This document shows positions 20,160-61,919 of a stretch of 64,000 bases of DNA, one piece after another; the stretch's first letter is position 1, and each line of letters begins with the position of its first letter. The position numbers and the translations under genes were made by a program. Where the stretch lies: positions 14,076,001-14,140,000 of the forward strand of contig NW_024704742.1 of assembly GCF_018977255.1 (NCBI RefSeq), written 5' to 3'. This stretch comes from Callorhinchus milii. Its lineage: Eukaryota. The notes beneath the pieces are model-generated. The model saw only the letters and a program-made list of their open reading frames with translations, made no database searches and was not told the origin of the DNA.

Positions 20160-21160
20160 CTTGACCTGGTCTCCTGCCATTTTAACTCACACTCCCATTC
20201 ACAGTCTGACGTCTCCATCCATGGTCTCCTACACTGTTCCAATGATCCACAGCCAAAGCTTGAGGAACAGCATCTTATCTATCTGCTAGGGACCCTACTG
20301 CCCTCTGGCCTCAATATCGATTTCAGCCACTTCAGACCAAAACAGCTCACCTTAGCCCCTCCCCCTCTTTCTGTTACCAGAAGAGTTATCTTCTGTTATC
20401 ATTACAACAACAACAACTTGGATTTATATAGTGCCCTCCACGTCGAACGACCTCTCGGAGTGCTTCACAGTAACGGATCCCGGGGCCGAGCCAGGGGGAG
20501 GGGGAGGAAGGTGACCAAAGGCGCAGTCGAAAAGAAAGGTCTTCAGCAGAGACCTGAAAATAGGAAGAGGGGGAGCGAGAATGAAGGGAGTGAGGAAGGG
20601 AGTTCCAGAGCCTCGGGACATAGTGGCTGAAGGCACGGCCACCGAGGGTGGAGCGGAGAACTCGGAGGACAAGGAGGAGGCCAGACCCGGAGGAACGAAG
20701 GCAACGGGCACTGTTGTGAGGAGATAGGAGGTCAGAGAGGTGGGTGCAGAGGAGTGGAGGGATTTGAAGACAAGGGTGATTATTTATCTCTTTATCTTTA
20801 TCTCTCTCTGGTGTGTTGCCTGTTCTGCACTATTAACATCTCTTCTCCCCAGTTTTGTTTCAACCCAGTCCCCACCACTTTTGTTTTACATCACTATCAC
20901 CTCTTTAACCCATCAGCTAACACATTCTCTCCTTTGTTTTCTTTTTTTGTCTTCTGTGTCTTCCTTGTCCTGCCTCCCCCTCTCAACTTGTCCTTAAAAA
21001 CCTCTCCCTCCCAACATGCCCCAGTTCTGATGAAGGGTCGTGGACCCAAAATGTTGACTCACTTTCCTTTCTCCATAGATGCTGCCTGACCTGCTGAGTT
21101 TTCCCAGCTCTCTCTTTTTTGTTTGATTTCCAGCATCTGTAGTATTTTGTGTTTTGTTCT
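20160..21160 (+). mobile_element. Penelope-like element relic: GIY-YIG endonuclease C-terminus plus 3' pLTR region, interrupted by L2
   Basis: 20166-20336 translates LVSCHFNSHSHSQSDVSIHGLLHCSNDPQPKLEEQHLIYLLGTLLPSGLNIDFSHFR (PLE-type HFN..H / EQ.LI..LGTL.P.GLN motif). 21020-21160 has ctgatgaagggtc...agatgctgcctgacctgctgag. Confidence 0.85.
20404..20780 (-). mobile_element. L2 3' fragment nested in the Penelope relic
   Basis: (aac)n ttggatttatatagtgccctccacgtcg; ORF 20424-20711 contains FRSLLKTFLFD. Confidence 0.8.
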
Positions 21161-28719: not shown

Positions 28720-28980
28720 TCCTCCTTGGGGAAGGTCGGTTGGACCTGAGCTGGCTCCAAGGTGATGTGTTTGGCAATGGGGTGTTGGAATTGAGCCATC
28801 CCTCTGTGGCAGTCTTAGTAGTTTGGTTCCTGAGCCAGACAGTTCTATGGTACTCCAGGACACTGCTGATGACATATCATTCAGCCTAGCTCATCAGCAG
28901 ATTTTGAAGGGGTAGGCTAATCACTGGGAGCAGAGAGTGTTCCTACTCGGCAACTGTCAAACCTGCAAGCCAAGTTCTAA
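28720..28980 (+). repeat. Unclassified old interspersed repeat (family D), copy 1
   Basis: Reverse-complement similarity to 29583-29712 and 55762-56010. Confidence 0.7.
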
Positions 28981-29582
28981 AGGGGAGAGTTTCCCTCACT
29001 GGATAAGCTGTGCGAAGCTTGCCAGATAGTGCTTGCAATGATAAGCTATACAGTTTTAGCTGATTAAACTCCCGATGCACACTCTGGGTTCTAAAGTCTT
29101 GGATCTTGCCAACCTGAGCCTAATCATGGTGTGTCCCTCCAGATAGAGTCTGTATTTCATTCCATTCCAGGGAAATTTGCATGTTTAGGTGACATGTCTA
29201 TGTGGATCATTCTTTCTGATTGACTACTCTTAAGCATGGTGATGGTTTTCTGCATGTGGCAGCCACTCGGTTCATTAAACAAAATTGTCAGCTTCAATTG
29301 GTCAGTAAACTGAGACTTCACATTATCAACTTCATGAACACTGTGGACTAGCCAAGTAGGTAAATGAGGATGATCCCCAGTATGAGAAAGATGAGCTATG
29401 AAAAATTATTAGATAAGCTGCGGCTCACAAATTTGCCTTTGCCTTAGATATGGGGGCACATTAGATCTGAGTTAAAATGGGACGAACCACAATCTTTGCT
29501 CATAGTTCAGTGACAGTATTTAGTTGTGCCATTCCTGTCTGGGAAGATTCTTGCTGATTATCCAATTAGGTCCACCTACCCG

Positions 29583-29712
29583 TTAAGACTTTGGCGTGCA
29601 GGTTAACAGGAAGAGTGGGAATAATCACTGCTCACAGTGACTGGTTTCCCCCTCCCAAGTGATGCTGATAAGCCAGACTAGCTAGCATGTCATCAGCAGT
29701 GCCCTGAAGTCA
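29583..29712 (-). repeat. Family D copy 2 (inverted relative to copy 1)
   Basis: atgtcatcagcagtg (29687-29701) is the exact reverse complement of 28861-28875; the flanks align with gaps. Confidence 0.7.
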
Positions 29713-33477: not shown

Positions 33478-35570
33478 TTACCGCTCCACTCTACCCTCGG
33501 CCAAGTCGTCCTTCTACTCCAGGATAATCCTGGAGGCGAAGAACAACCCCAGGCTACTGTTTTCCACCACAACCCGACTCCTCCGTCCCCCCGCCACCCC
33601 GCGCAGGTCATCTCCTCCAACCTTCACTGCGAGGAGATGCTGGATTTCCTTGAATCCAAGATCAAGGGAATTCGCTCCGCGGTCACTTCCCCTCCAACAT
33701 CCACCAACCCCCCAACGCCCTCACTCCCACATTCCGACTGCTACCTATCCTCCCGTACTCACTTTTGTACCCGTTTCCCCACCCTCTGTCACCAAACTCA
33801 TCCTATCCCTAAAACCAACCACCTGCTCCCTTGACCCCATCCCCACTCCACTCCTTATCTCCCAGCTCCACTTTCTTGCCCCACATATCACCGACATCAT
33901 CAACCTGTCCCTCTCCTCTGGCTCTGTCCCCATTCCCTTTAAAAACTGCCACCATCACGCCCACCCTGAAAAAACCCTCCCTTGATGCGTCGCAGCTATC
34001 AAGCTACCGGCCCATCTCCAACCTCCCCTTTCTCTCCAAGGTCCTGGAAAGAGTTGTCGCCTCCCAACTGCGCTCTTTCCTTTCCACCCATTCACTTTTC
34101 GAACCCCTTCAGTCAGGTTTCCGTGCTGCCCATAGCACAGAAACTGCCCTGGTCAAGGTCACCAATGATATCCTGACCATCTGTGACCAGGGCTCCCTCT
34201 GCCTCCTCGTCCTCCTCGACCTATCGGCAGCATTCGATACGGTCGACCACACTATCCTACTCCACCGCTTGTCCTCCCACCTCAACCTTCAAGGCACTGT
34301 CCTTGAGTGGTTTAGGTCGTACCTTTCTCACCGTCTTCACTTTGTCTCGACGAATGGCTTCTCCTCCACCCCCCGTACTGTCTCATGTGGTGTCCCTCAG
34401 GGCTCTGTCCTCGGTCCCCTCCTCTTCACCCTCTATATGCTCCCCCTTGGTGACATCATCCGCAGACATGGAGTTAACTTCCACATGTATGCGGATGACA
34501 CCCAACTCTACCTTTCCTCCTCTACTCTCAACTCCACGACCACCGATGTCCTGACAGCCTGCCTGTCCGACATCGAGTCCTGGACGAGAGACAACTTTCT
34601 TCAGCTCAACGTGCGAAAAACCGAGGCCCTCCTGATTGGCTCACGTCAGCGCCTCCGCACCTCAGGCGCCGACACCATCAGCATCCAAGGCTGCACTCTC
34701 CACCTCTCAAAGCCAGTCAGGAACCTCGGCGTTTTGTTCGACCCTGAGCTGTCCTTTCTCCCTCACATCCGCACCACAACTGGCACCGCCTTCCATCACC
34801 TCCGGAACATCGCCAGACTACGGCATTACCTCACCCCTCACGCTGCTGAAACCCTGGTTCACGCCTTTGTCACCTCAAGGCTGGACTATGGGAACTCTCT
34901 CCTCGCCGGCCTTCCCGGCACCTCCCTCCACAAGCTGCAGGTCATTCAGAACTCTGCAGCTCGTGTACTGTCCCGCACCAGGCTTCGCGACCACATCACT
35001 CCCACCCTCGCTCGCCTCCACTGGCTCCCCATCCCCCAGAGGATTGATTTCAAGATCCTCATCCTCACCTACAAGGCCATTCACGGCCTTGCTCCCTCCT
35101 ACCTCTCCAACCTACTATCCCCCTACCTACCTGCCCGTACCCTCCGTTCCTCCGGCTCTGGTCTGCTCCACGTCCCCCGCCCCAATCGCCCTACCATCGG
35201 TGGTCGGGCCTTCAGCCTCTCAGCCCCGAGGCTCTGGAACTCCATCCCCCAGTGCCTTCGCCGCCTCCTCCCTTTCCTCCTTCAAGGCCGGTCTCAAAAC
35301 CTTTCTCTTTGACCGAGCCTTCAGCTCCCCTCTCGACTCTCTTCCCCCTCCTCGCTCCCTCCCTTCCCTCCCCTCACCATTTCCCCCCTCTTCGCTCCCT
35401 CCCTTCCCTCCCCTCACCCTGACCATTTCCCCCCTCCTCGCTCCCTCCCTTCCCTCCCCTCACCCTGACCTTTTCCCCCTGCTCGGGTCATGACCCAACT
35501 GTGCAGCGCCTTGGGAAGTCCTCCTGACGTGAAAGGCGCTTTCTAAATGGAATCTTGTTGTTGTTGTTGT
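33478..35570 (+). mobile_element. L2-clade LINE, 5'-truncated (~2.1 kb), young; RT domain open over 33945-35312
   Basis: [56 protein letters not shown]; upstream linker (LDPIPT) frameshifted; (ttg)n tail; tatat TSD at 33473-33477 / 35571-35575 inside a SINE tail. Confidence 0.97.
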
Positions 35571-35744
35571 TATATCAAATACAAGGATTATTATTTTATC
35601 ATGAAATGGAAATGCCCCGTGTGATGCACAAGGGGATACTCCTCTGATGTTGATGTGAGGTCAGATTCAGACAGCTTGCATTTATATAATGCCTTCGATG
35701 AAACAGAATGTCTCAAAGCACTTATTTCACAACATTGAACAAAT

Positions 35745-41675: not shown

Positions 41676-42386
41676 CTGACCTATTCCCTCTTGACCAATG
41701 CTTTGTCGCTCTCATTTTCCAAGTCCTGATCGTTACAAAAAGCATGATATTCAGGCAGACACCTGACAGTGCCTTTAAGACTGGGCTATTAATAGGTGGA
41801 AAACTAGGTTGATAACAGCAGCACAGGTTTGCTACTGGGAAAAGCTCAGAACCAAGCTATCAAACACAATAAAATACTGACACTCATTTTGTTCTCATTT
41901 CAAAATTGTTAGTTCCATGTATGACAAGAAAGTGCATTTAGGTGAATTACTTTGAAATTCTCCTAGTGATGCTAATTTGTTTAGACTAGAACTCTGAAAA
42001 TAAAGCCGAATCAAGGGTAACTAGTGTGCAGTCTGATGGGAGTAGTGCTGCATAAGCTGTCTCTGTTTAAAGTTATTCTAAGGTTACATTTTTAGCTATG
42101 AATATGGGTTGAATGACAGTAGAGAGAGTAAAGATATTGGTTTGGTAGGCTCAAATGTCTCTGGGAATAAGAAAAGTGAAGAAAGAATCCCGCCGAGGGT
42201 TTTGATTGATGTGGTATGTACTCTCCTTTTCATTATTTCAATTTTTACATTAGTTGTCTCTGTGCAGAGAGAAATATTCAAGTTGTTCCGTAGAGAAGAG
42301 AAAAATGACCACTGCCATACAGAGAGTTCTTTCACAAAATTAGTTTCTCGCTCTATAACTACTATTGTGAAAGAACTTGAGCAGCT

Positions 42387-42510
42387 GTCAGACATATCAC
42401 CAAATGATGGGTACACATTAATCCAATGGGAATACCAGCACCAGTCGGACATATCACCATACGAAGGATAACACATCAATCCAACTGGAATACCAGCTCC
42501 AGTCAGACAT
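42387..42510 (+). repeat. Tandem repeat, 57-58 bp unit, ~2.2 copies
   Basis: gtc(a/g)gacatatcacca...aatccaa..ggaataccagc.cca starts at 42387, 42444 and 42502. Confidence 0.85.
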
Positions 42511-44030: not shown

Positions 44031-44210
44031 GAACAAAACACAAAATATTGCAAATGCTAGAATCTGAAACAAAAACAGAAAGAGCTGGGAAAACTCAGCA
44101 GGTCAGGCAGCATCTATGGAGAATGTTCTGATGAAGTGTCGACTCACTTTTCTTTCTCCATAGATGCTGCCTGACCTGCTGAATTTTCCCAGCTCCCTCT
44201 GTTTTTGATT
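44031..44210. mobile_element. Penelope pLTR-derived fold-back insertion with 15-bp TSD
   Basis: Arms ~44063-44123 and ~44154-44214 are reverse complements; cagaccacaagtgtt occurs at 44016-44030 and 44211-44225; sequence matches 21020-21160. Confidence 0.88.
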
Positions 44211-55761: not shown

Positions 55762-56010
55762 GTTTGGTTTGCAGGGTTAACAGGAGTTGAGTGGTAAGAA
55801 TCCATGTTCCCAGTGACTGGTCTACCCCTCCAGGTCCTATCAATGAGCCAAACTGGCTGGTCTGTCAGCAAGTGTATTAGAGTACTATAGACCCGCCTGA
55901 CTCAGGAACTGGACTGAAACTGCCACAAGCGATAGATCAATTTGAGTATTCCATTGCAAAGCATGTTACCTTGGAGCCAGCTCATCCCAATGACACATGG
56001 TTTACCTTCC
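55762..56010 (-). repeat. Family D copy 3
   Basis: accttggagccagctca is the reverse complement of tgagctggctccaaggt at ~28748-28764; alignment continues to tttgcagggttaacagg. Confidence 0.7.
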
Positions 56011-57467: not shown

Positions 57468-57945
57468 TATAATAATAATAATAATCCTTGCATTTGTTAT
57501 AGTGCTTTTCATGTCGGGAGAACGTCCCAAAGCGCTTCACAGAATATACTGTAAAGTGAATTGCCTGTATATTTGTGGGCGAACGCGGCAGCCAGTTGCT
57601 CACAGCGGTGTCCCACAAACAGTCATAATAATAATAATAATCCTTGCATTTGATATAGTGCTTTTCACGTCGGGAGGACGTCCCAAAGCGCTTCACAGAA
57701 CACACTGTAAAGTGAATTGACTGTATATTTGTGGGCGAACGCGGCAGCCAATTGCGCACAGCAGTGTCCCACAAACAGTCATGGATTGAAAATGACCAAT
57801 TTATTGTTGTTTTTGTTTTTTTGAGGGATTATTGTTAGGCGTGTGGAGTAAGGAAACTTGCCCAAGGTTTCGCCCTCTGCCTGGAATTGAACTCAGGTCT
57901 CTCGCTTGCAAAGCGAGTGCTCTAACCACTGAGCTACAGGACTCC
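57468..57945 (-). mobile_element. SINE family A, young, with a tandemly duplicated 3' ~156 bp
   Basis: (aat)n ccttgcattt...cccacaaacagtc occurs twice (57469-57624, 57625-57780); single head at 57945. Confidence 0.93.
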
Positions 57946-58995: not shown

Positions 58996-59394
58996 TTCAA
59001 TGTCCTATGTATAATATGCAGAATCTCATTTGCCTGCTTATTGGCTTTTCTTCTTGCACTCACATGCTTAAAGTGTGCATCTGCACCATTAAATTTATTT
59101 GTTTCTCCAAATCATTGAGAAGTTTACCATTTAGGATATCAACATTGTCATCATCATAATGATGATGATAATAATAATTACATTTGATGTAATGCCTGTC
59201 CACATCAAGATGATGTCTCAAAACACTTCATTGGATTTTACTGTAAAGTGAGATACCCTATTTTATGATTCAAGGTGTTTATTTTTAGACCTGGAAGTGA
59301 CAATTTGATGTTGCAGATCGGTAAACCAACTAAATAAAGGCAGTTTCCTGTATTATTGTTTACTGATTATCCCCTCCAACAACAACACATCAGA

Positions 59395-59865
59395 AAGAGC
59401 TCTGCAGAGGAATTGAAAATGTGGTGGTAGAATGGCCTCAGGGAGCAGTGGAGTGCCAGAGCCGTGTCTGTTAACACCGGTGATAATAGGTAATCATTTT
59501 GTGGCGTTCAATAACAAGTTCCTTGTGATGGTTAAAGATTATCGAACAGCACAAACTACCCAATAGGTCTTAAAGCTAAGTTCAGGTGGAATTTCACATC
59601 GCTACACATTACAGGTTTGAATCTAGACTCAGTTGGATGATATTAGCCAGGAGAGCAGTTGCCCTCAGGCAGGAAAGTGGAAACCACAGCCAAGATACCT
59701 AATCCTGATCCCTATCTAGTGTAGTGACCCAAGTTAGAAAGTATGTGTGTGGACACTGGGTGAAGATTTTATTCAATTCAATTGTAATGCACTCCCCGTT
59801 GTCAAGAAACCTGTGGGTGCTCTATCTTGGCTCACACAGAGCCACTGGGTGAGTTACCAGAGGAT
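59395..59865 (+). repeat. Long inverted repeat, left arm (471 bp)
   Basis: Reverse complement of 60359-60829 with 7 substitutions by manual count and no indels. Confidence 0.97.
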
Positions 59866-60104
59866 GAGTGATGCCTGTAGTATTCTACCCCATGAAATGG
59901 TTATCTCCAACTCATTCAAAACCTTATTTTTTTTCTATACTAAGCTCTACACACCTATTAAAACCAGGCAAAATTGTCTCTAAATACCCCTCTAGATAAA
60001 CATCAAGATTGTTCTGAACTTCAAATCTCTCAATTGTCTTCTTACCGGCTTCCTACCTACTCAATTTGCTCCAGTCTATTCCTTCGCTCCCTCTATCCCA
60101 TCCT

Positions 60105-60250
60105 TGGCTGTTTGTGGGACATTGCTGTACATAAGTAGGCTAGTGTGTTGACTCAGAAGTATACAATTACTAAATCCTTTGAGATGCTTTGGAACCTCCT
60201 ACCAACGTGAAAGGCAGAACACTAAATGCAAGGATTATTATTATTATTAC
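60105..60250 (+). mobile_element. Deu SINE 3' fragment nested in an old L2 3' fragment (~60020-60960)
   Basis: ggctgtttgtgggacattgctgt ... aaatgcaaggattattattatt; L2-like ttatggaactctcttcc follows. Confidence 0.75.
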
Positions 60251-60358
60251 CGTTGGGTGGTTCAGCCTTTAGGCATTGTGCCTCCACTTTATGGAACTCT
60301 CTTCCTAAATTTCTTCACCTTGCACCTTTCCTTGGTAAAACCTTCACCTTAAAGGATT

Positions 60359-60829
60359 ATCCTCTGGTAACTCACCCAGTGGCTCTGTGTGAGCCAAGAT
60401 AGAGCACCCACAGGTTTCTTGACAACGGGGAGTGCATTACAATTGAATTGAATAAAGTCTTCACCCAGTGTCCACACACATACTTTCTAACTTGGGTCAC
60501 TACACTAGATAGGAATCAGGATTAGGTATCTTGGCTGTGGTTTCCACTTTCGTGCCTGAGGGCAACTGCTCTCCTGGCTAATATCATCCAACTGAGTCTA
60601 GATTCAAACCTGTAATGTGTAGCGATGTGAAATTCCACCTGATCTTAGCTTTAAGACCTATTGGGTAGTTTGTGCTGTTCGATAATCTTTAACCATCACA
60701 AGGAACTTGTTATTGAATGCCACAAAATGATTACCTATTATCACCGGTGTTAACAGACACGGCTCTGGCACTCCACTGTTCCCTGAGGCCATTCTACCAC
60801 CACATTTTCAATTCCTTTGCAGAGCTCTT
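60359..60829 (-). repeat. Long inverted repeat, right arm (471 bp)
   Basis: Reverse complement of 59395-59865. Confidence 0.97.
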
Positions 60830-61334
60830 CACCAAGGTGAAGAAGTTGTCTCTTCTTTCCCCCCTGCTTGGTGATTCCCCATTATGTGACCGAGAAGCAT
60901 TTCCAGACAATATGAAAACCATCCTTAATCATTGTACAAATGCAAGTTATTGTTGATGTTGTCCCCTTCGAAAGAGAAGAGTACAATGGCAGCAAAGTGT
61001 AAGAGGGTACTCAAACAAGTTTTTTACTCCTATATAATGTTCAGTACTGGTAAAGTTGCGTTTGGAATACTGTTTAAATTTTTGAGCATGCTGCTTTCAA
61101 AAAGGCTTTGATGTTAGGGTTCAAAGGCAAGCAACAATGATCATTCCTGGACTTCAGACTCTTAAATAATGCAGAGAGACAAATAGAATCAAAGTTGATT
61201 TCTTTGCACACAGGTAGATTGTTTTTGAGACGTTATCCATTTCCTTTTACATGATGAAATGTGTGAATGTTTATGTAGACGTATTATTTAACAAACTACA
61301 ATTGCAGCACAAAAGGTAAAAAGCATCAAGTCAG

Positions 61335-61919
61335 ACAACAACAACAACAACAAGATTCCATTTATAAAGTGCCTTTCACGTCAGGAGGACGTCCCAAGGC
61401 GCTGCACAGTTGGGTCATGACCTGAGCAGGGGGGAAATGGTCAGGGTGAAGGGAGGGAGCGAGGAGGGGGGAAATGGTCAGGGTGAGGGGAGGGAAGGGA
61501 GGGAGCAAGGAGGGGGGAAATGGTCAGGGTGAGGGGAGGGAAGGGAGGGAGCGAGGAGGGGGAAATGGTCAGGGTGAGGGGAGGGAAGGGAGGGATCGAG
61601 GAGGGGGAAGAGAGTCGAGAGGGGAGCTGAAGGCTCGGTCAAAGAGAAAGGTTTTGAGACCGGCCTTGAAGGAAGAGAGGGAGGAAGCGGCGAAGGCACT
61701 GGGGGATAGAGTTCCAGAGCCTCGGGGCTGAGAGGCTGAAGGCCCGACCACCGATGGTAGGGCGATTGGGGCGGGGGACGTGGAGCAGACCAAAGCCGGA
61801 GGAACAGAGGGTATGGGCAGGTAGTAAGGGGGATAGTAGGTCAGAGAGGTAGGAGGGAGCAAGGCCGTGGATGGCCTTATAGGTGAGGATGAGGATCTTG
61901 AAATCAATCCTCTGAGGAT
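61335..61919 (-). mobile_element. Young L2 3' fragment, same subfamily as 33478-35570
   Basis: (aac)n aagattccatt tail, expanded G-rich 3' UTR repeat, TSD tcagacaa at 61331-61338 / 61921-61928. Confidence 0.95.

Follow-up and report, generated by a model that had tools for sequence, protein, structure and literature searches.

How did two nearly identical copies of one stretch of DNA come to lie in opposite orientation half a kilobase apart, and what becomes of RNA that contains both? These questions are raised by a locus in a 64-kb window (the whole stretch of DNA analysed; positions are counted from its first letter), and the answers given below draw on the window itself and on contigs from other sequencing runs.

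An inverted duplication of single-copy DNA

An earlier reading, made from the sequence alone, had described two arms as reverse complements with seven substitutions, no indels and a 493-bp spacer. A recount gave the same figures, with 464 of the 471 positions identical between the arms, and the self-comparison proposed in that reading, done by BLAST, recovered the arm pair. The parts of the repeat are as follows:

59395 to 59865, + strand: left arm, single-copy DNA that has no further homologue within the window; forms the 5' strand of the predicted RNA stem
59866 to 60358, + strand: spacer of 493 bp, the predicted hairpin loop
60359 to 60829, - strand: right arm, an inverted copy of the left arm within an L2 element; 3' strand of the predicted RNA stem

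The seven differences, at 59407/60817, 59445/60779, 59506/60718, 59581/60643, 59672/60552, 59710/60514 and 59767/60457, comprise five transitions and two transversions. Identity is even right up to both ends of the arms, and the edges are sharp, with no decayed extension. This pair is the longest of the 301 inverted pairs in the window, and among the 299 pairs found by self-BLAST it alone reaches 95% identity or more over 80 bp or more. No other local inverted copy of unique DNA was found within the 64-kb window. An inverted pair at 28852-29029 and 29535-29710 (70% identity, 505 bp apart) has a third copy at 55764-55984, which points to an old family of repeats and not to local copying.

An older L2 element split by the right arm

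L2-type LINE copies and tRNA-headed SINE copies make up about a third of the window; these two names are taken from general features of the families and from the sequence-only reading, not from a repeat library. In an Rfam scan of the window the matches were to tRNA-like SINE heads only, besides two chance-level ones near the arms. Younger L2 copies are found at 33813-35575, 2597-4124 and 61327-61917. The first of these contains a 499-codon frame (33813-35312) that is 91% identical to 2597-4034 and, judged by its motifs, is presumably reverse-transcriptase-like. The L2 copy at 61573-61917 is inverted relative to 35034-35378 (96% identity), and at 57469-57782 the 3' part of a SINE (156 bp) is duplicated head-to-tail with 94% of positions matched.

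The arms are associated with an older, 5'-truncated L2, which was traced with an L2 profile built from the window:

59905 to 60097, + strand: 5' part of the old L2 (end of the ORF2 region), matching the profile from model position 973 onward
60098 to 60249, + strand: 3' piece of a SINE-type high-copy repeat nested in the L2, with a depth of 10^4 to 10^5 in the DNA-like runs described below
60250 to 60358, + strand: L2 3' region as far as the insertion point (profile match 60255-60334, E 4e-10)
60830 to 60962, + strand: rest of the L2 3' tail with its terminal repeat (profile match 60860-60962, E 1.5e-4)

The match of 59905-60097 to the window's own L2 ORF was weak by tblastn (E 0.21). The two tail matches (60255-60334 and 60860-60962) flank the right arm in model order. 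When the right arm was deleted in silico they merged into a single match of 43.3 bits, and when the nested SINE piece (60098-60249) was deleted as well, the whole of 59905-60962 became a single collinear L2 match (51.4 bits, E 2e-18). Deleting the left arm instead gained the L2 match nothing. With the longer L2 profile that gave 51.4 bits and the two halves searched apart, the left half scored 43.7 bits and the right half gave no match. Pairwise alignment across the join succeeded for four of 13 L2 tails, each time better than the best of 200 shuffles. As a control, 300 random window stretches were tried: 13 of them likewise lengthened the left half of the L2, ten with a score of at least 43 bits. 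This control is not clean because repeat tails are common in the window.

The direction of copying can be read from this arrangement. The L2 is collinear once the right arm is removed, which supports the right arm as the insert and copy and the left arm as the original template. The sequence-only reading had held that the right arm splits an old L2 3' end and is a local, opposite-strand copy of the left arm, and both points are supported. By profile match, the spacer is mostly the L2 5' part. The same reading had the left arm running on past 59865 into an old repeat family, which it called family C. No such continuation was found with nhmmer, with three window-built profiles or by tile alignment against shuffles; these scans were of modest sensitivity, the tile scan having missed the L2 part at 59905 too. 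The first recognisable repeat beyond the left arm is that L2 5' part, from about 59905. At the outer end of the left arm, 59368-59407 overlaps the arm and matches that part of the L2 model to which 59905 also aligns (E 0.044), probably by chance.

Presence and copy number in other samples

Twenty-four runs of one species matched the window by word search. Four contained 81-84% of the words, and a further run, X5, contained 28%. None of the 24 is on record as RNA, and the small word shares of the other runs guessed, like X5, to be RNA are uninformative on expression. Contigs of four of the 24 (X1, X3, X4 and X5) were aligned to 59866-61320, which covers the spacer, the right arm and its flank. 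The kind of X1, X3 and X4 is unrecorded, and they behave as genomic DNA (referred to here as DNA-like); X5 is presumed, as a guess, to be RNA.

The junction at 60829/60830 was bridged in all three DNA-like runs (X1 record 8, X3 record 16 and X4 record 23, with 0, 2 and 0 differences), and the one at 60358/60359 was present without differences in X1 record 6 and X3 record 15, each with 30 arm letters (the tool minimum was 31). The sequence-only reading had named exactly these two junctions as the place to look for an artefact. In addition, X4 record 17 links 458 arm letters to the spacer, which confirms the left inner junction. Arm contigs were collapsed and carried left-arm letters at 60779 (X1), 60457 (X3) and 60514 (X4); 60643 is the probable site of a T>A in X1, and the contigs of both X1 and X4 break off at 60816/60817. 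No left-arm letters were seen at 60552 and 60718 in the aligned contigs of these runs.

Arm bins were mostly 13-30 deep, whereas the single-copy flank was 7-17 deep and the SINE piece 10^4-10^5; one arm bin (60601-60649) was deeper, at 45-110. Since the depth of the arm is far below that of the SINE piece, the arm is not a high-copy family at 85% identity or above. The ratio of arm to flank depth in X1 was 1.53. Both arms on both chromosomes would give 1.57, and on one chromosome 1.07-1.28, a comparison that is rough because depth does not equal copy number.

A chimera made by fold-back or amplification has to be considered, as chimeras are known to take the form of short-spaced inverted repeats, no single contig spans the whole stretch, and the aligned region excludes the left outer junction. 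Junction contigs in independent runs, together with the lack of a high-copy family, argue against both an assembly artefact and a MITE. Arm depth above single copy, the presence of both alleles at arm differences and the editing pattern described below, which requires both arms, leave an artefact with a negligible chance of being the explanation.

The empty L2 allele that the sequence-only reading had suggested seeking in other individuals did not appear in the three DNA-like runs: no such joint was among the 15 of 100 joints listed, all 15 of which came from the SINE pile-up. Contigs also lose rare variants, which limits this view, and the junction contigs were unbroken in X1 and X3. Outside the arm, a C>T at 61146 in X3 alone is an ordinary variant.

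Junctions of the right arm

The two ends of the right arm differ in structure. At the outer end, the sequence and the alignments contain the shared letters that had been noticed at the distal junction from the start:

60825 to 60829, + strand: ctctt, 5 nt that fit both the arm end and the L2 host, the microhomology of the return junction

At the inner junction (60358/60359) microhomology is absent. The inner join may be blunt, since the ggatt on its host side aligns to the L2 model. In 572 trial joins, the top 15 scored 46-51 bits and the arm-edge joins 42-43, and the loss of host bases was not pinned down in this way; judged by eye, with the join at 60358/60825, a few bases at most would have been lost. 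A fold-back (agga-tta-tcct, a 4-bp stem with a 3-nt loop) at 60352-60363 straddles the inner junction and may be a snap-back trace or chance.

The origin of the arms as two insertions or as the termini of a low-copy transposon of MITE or foldback type was weighed against these observations. Foldback elements typically have long terminal inverted repeats, one arm bin (60601-60649) is the deepest, and the 7-mer cttcacc occurs on both sides of the right arm, once 10 nt before it and once across its end. Because this 7-mer is offset from the insert and each copy has a counterpart in the L2 alignment, it is not read as a target-site duplication; a short re-copy upon return may be its source. A target-site duplication flush with the ends is absent: the right arm has the offset 7-mer only, and the outer ends of the pair diverge immediately. 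Nor was an arm family found in the window, or an arm-length pile-up in the three DNA-like runs at 85% identity or above, a threshold below which older copies could lie. In addition, the spacer is filled by the 5' part of the very L2 that the right arm interrupts, an arrangement impossible for a two-ended element. The sequence-only reading had already set aside a TIR transposon, and in the light of these data such an element is highly improbable.

Age of the duplication

The divergence between the arms amounts to 0.74% per arm (95% interval 0.30-1.5%). In the text of a study of the epaulette shark the measured rate is given as 7e-10 per base per generation (PMC10587355). With this rate, which comes from another species, the duplication may be about 10^7 generations old, with a wide range. 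The duplication had earlier been called recent. On this estimate the word holds only against the host L2, and no empty allele was seen among the joints listed.

The duplication could also be much older than the difference of 1.5% suggests, if gene conversion or flipping kept the arms alike. Inverted neighbouring copies can convert one another, and such an age would agree with the lack of an empty allele among the joints listed in the three DNA-like runs. Against this stand the even identity to both ends, the sharp edges without a decayed extension, and the presence across samples of both arm alleles, at three sites directly and at two more inferred, from which it follows that the arm differences are stable. 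Conversion as the cause of the similarity is thus considered unlikely.

A-to-G differences confined to the arm in one run

If transcribed, the stem had been expected in the sequence-only reading to be an ADAR substrate, and a search for A-to-G clusters had been suggested. Such clusters were found in X5, the presumed RNA run. It differed from the window at 69 places, comprising 45 A>G, 23 T>C and 1 G>T; 68 of the 69 are thus A>G or T>C, and the G>T kind also occurs once in each DNA-like run. Positions are listed for 40 of the 72 rows of the difference table, 38 of them concerning X5:

60374 to 60779, + strand: span of the A>G and T>C places listed for X5, all 38 of them inside the arm

Two of these 38 are arm marker sites, and at the other 36 the edit-like letter is absent from the three DNA-like runs. 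The six listed X5 arm contigs had 8-29 differences each (per 123 to 218 letters), or 96 over 852 arm letters. Outside the arm there were none in 497 letters, made up of a spacer contig (record 24, 59878-60234, 357 letters) and a flank contig (61181-61320, 140 letters). The contrast between arm and outside gave a Fisher p of 1e-20, for sites that are not independent. Within 60372-60489, 21 of 34 A were changed and none of 30 T. A G preceded 3 of the 36 listed edit-like sites, compared with 22% of arm adenosines (p 0.028, one-sided; not significant for record 25 alone, p 0.42), and a preference for a 3' G was not seen at these sites (7 of 36). The evidence from X5 consists of unstranded contigs at a depth of 2-7 from one sample, and the comparison DNA is from other samples.

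In the predicted fold of the RNA the stem runs from end to end, interrupted by three mismatches and including four G-U pairs. There was no sign of selection on pairing: G-U on the + strand is kept at four of the seven arm differences, which is within chance for five transitions. The confinement of the changes to this predicted stem points to ADAR-type hyper-editing of a hairpin, with ADAR as the probable enzyme.

The A>G letters might instead be genomic, from a diverged or once-edited, reverse-transcribed copy elsewhere or from individual variation, especially as the RNA nature of X5 is a guess. Record 25, the most changed contig, had 29 differences in 218 letters and still passed the 85% alignment threshold, yet such letters are absent from the three DNA-like runs. 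Furthermore, at least seven overlapping X5 contigs had differing patterns. A genomic source for these letters retains only a very slight chance, and they are treated below as edits.

Strand and transcript

Record 25 has A>G changes, extends 18 letters into the spacer and at 60514 bears the right-arm letter; it is therefore assigned to the right arm of + strand RNA. The X5 contigs with T>C changes bear left-arm letters at 60514 and 60779, and are therefore read as the left arm of the same strand, aligned onto the right arm. These assignments indicate that the edited RNA is probably mostly + strand. X5 record 30 bridges the outer junction and includes the right-arm flank, yet carries a T>C at 60707. 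Origin from the + strand alone would not account for this letter, which could reflect a mosaic contig, a certain amount of antisense RNA or simply a variant.

The edited duplex might then have formed between overlapping sense and antisense transcripts rather than within a hairpin, as both A>G and T>C are present and record 30 pairs a T>C with right-arm flank. Such transcripts fit poorly with the absence of differences in the X5 contigs that cover 357 letters of spacer and 140 letters of 3' flank, with the arm letters of the T>C contigs (60514 and 60779) and of record 25 (60514), and with the extension of record 25 into the spacer. A duplex between two transcripts is accordingly judged very unlikely, and a hairpin is preferred. 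In X5, edited contigs from both arms occur together with unedited spacer, and a molecule spanning them is absent among the aligned contigs.

No host gene was found: a Pfam scan of 150 of the 195 non-repeat frames gave 11 weak matches, none at the curated cut-off. A 129-codon open frame at 42082-42468 (+) starts at AG, encodes a membrane-helix-like hydrophobic stretch and has a 58-bp tandem repeat at its end. No relative of it was found in Pfam, the Atlas, the PDB (one match, E 0.29) or among longer proteins, and it may be a lineage-specific last exon or chance. A palindromic element of about 150-180 bp at 44031-44210 has a fold z-score of -16 and a 90% partial copy 23 kb off, at 21049-21159; it is a MITE-like hairpin and another likely editing substrate.

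Proposed origin and fate of the repeat

It is quite likely that one copying accident formed this repeat and that the transcribed arms then fold into an ADAR-edited hairpin. DNA synthesis would have been passing through the old L2 when, near 60358, the 3' end quit its template, copied 471 bases off the opposite strand 0.5 kb upstream, from 59865 back to 59395, and returned to the L2 by means of the 5-nt microhomology with few or no host bases lost, giving the order 3-2-1-4 of the four-point model. The copy would then have spread through the species and accrued the seven differences. The locus would be transcribed at a low level, mainly or wholly from the + strand, as intronic or read-through RNA; the arms would pair into a 471-bp stem, and ADAR would convert roughly half of all adenosines in those molecules that are edited most, leaving a weaker duplex. 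Nothing points to a selected function, and the hairpin probably has none.

The polymerase responsible may have been working outside a normal fork. A double-strand break in the L2 could have been patched by repair synthesis of the polymerase theta, microhomology-mediated BIR or SDSA type. The return-junction microhomology and the 4-bp fold-back on the inner junction are compatible with such repair, as is the length of the copy, since 471 bp far exceeds the short template switches catalogued in the text of PMC7954356. According to the text of PMC7025897, tumours contain local two-jump structures in which a nearby segment is duplicated in inverted orientation. There is no clear deletion or filler that would mark a break, although the exact host loss is not pinned down. 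Break repair taken by itself is a serious contender, somewhat short of an even chance. The four-point model is mechanism-neutral as presented in PMC5453318, and break repair therefore differs from fork switching only in the enzyme. Copying by one or other of these routes remains likely as a whole, with the chances about equally divided between the two within it.

Significance of the locus

By itself the locus reveals no new mechanism or function. It indicates that a single copying error can yield a heavily edited ADAR substrate in a genome of the cartilaginous-fish type. Most known long, near-perfect dsRNAs stem from pairs of mobile elements, and reads from them are hard to place. The arms described here are single-copy, have seven marker differences and have a readable origin, so that editing, strand, export and small-RNA yield are measurable for each arm.

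Long near-perfect endogenous dsRNAs are described in the text of PMC7006430 as rare and selected against, and are thought to include critical ADAR1 targets, many of them outside canonical transcripts. A broader reading, which we put forward tentatively and regard as doubtful, is that one-off local inverted duplications of single-copy DNA are a steady, transposon-independent source of long, near-perfect dsRNA in a slowly mutating genome, lasting millions of generations because mutation erodes them so slowly, and defused by ADAR rather than decayed or purged. If this were true, the present locus would be the first case traced from copying error to edited duplex.

Comparison with known systems

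Events of the order 3-2-1-4 belong to the four-point template-switch model of Loytynoja and Goldman (2017, PMC5453318), and in the text of Walker et al. (2021, PMC7954356) great-ape events have 2->3 lengths with a median of 12 and a maximum of 128. The present duplication resembles these events, as described in the two papers, in that the reverse complement of nearby upstream sequence was inserted and synthesis came back near its point of exit, leaving an inverted repeat with an upright spacer. It is unlike the great-ape events of PMC7954356 in its length, 471 bp compared with at most 128, a difference to which the limits of their method may contribute, and in that its ancestral state was rebuilt from L2 homology rather than from a sister genome. 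The local 2-jumps of tumours (2020, PMC7025897) are similar, going by that paper's account, in that two inverted junctions join a nearby duplicated segment into one chromosome, and they differ from the present case, which is germline, sub-kilobase, almost without loss and common to the samples.

No paper tying a template-switch-type duplication of single-copy DNA to hyper-editing in a cartilaginous fish was found in the mostly open-access literature, within which the supplements of PMC5625713 and PMC7006430 may bear on the question; the word 'shark' is absent from the main text of PMC7006430. Dense A>G clusters in long dsRNA were described by Porath et al. (2017, PMC5625713), whose text reports that a 5' G is depleted in every species and that the 3' preference varies. 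Their table already includes elephant shark brain, with 200,171 hyper-editing sites, 81% of them in repeats, and most edited duplexes are attributed to pairs of mobile elements or to palindromic elements. In the present case A>G or T>C changes make up more than 5% of the sequence with other kinds rare, as in the reads selected in the text of PMC5625713, on contigs rather than reads. Unlike the duplexes of that paper, this one arose as a one-off copy of single-copy DNA.

Long, nearly perfect inverted duplications were defined by Barak (2020, PMC7006430) by cut-offs of more than 300 bp and more than 96% identity, and with 471 bp and 98.5% the present repeat exceeds both. It is also like the cases in the text of PMC7006430 in its low cover, the most edited contig here being about 87% identical to the genome. 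Unlike those cases, its arms have no recognisable repeat family, no host transcript was found for it, and the origin of the duplex is readable from the split L2. The locus clearly unites two known processes, a template-switch-type duplication of the 3-2-1-4 order and a long, near-perfect edited duplex.
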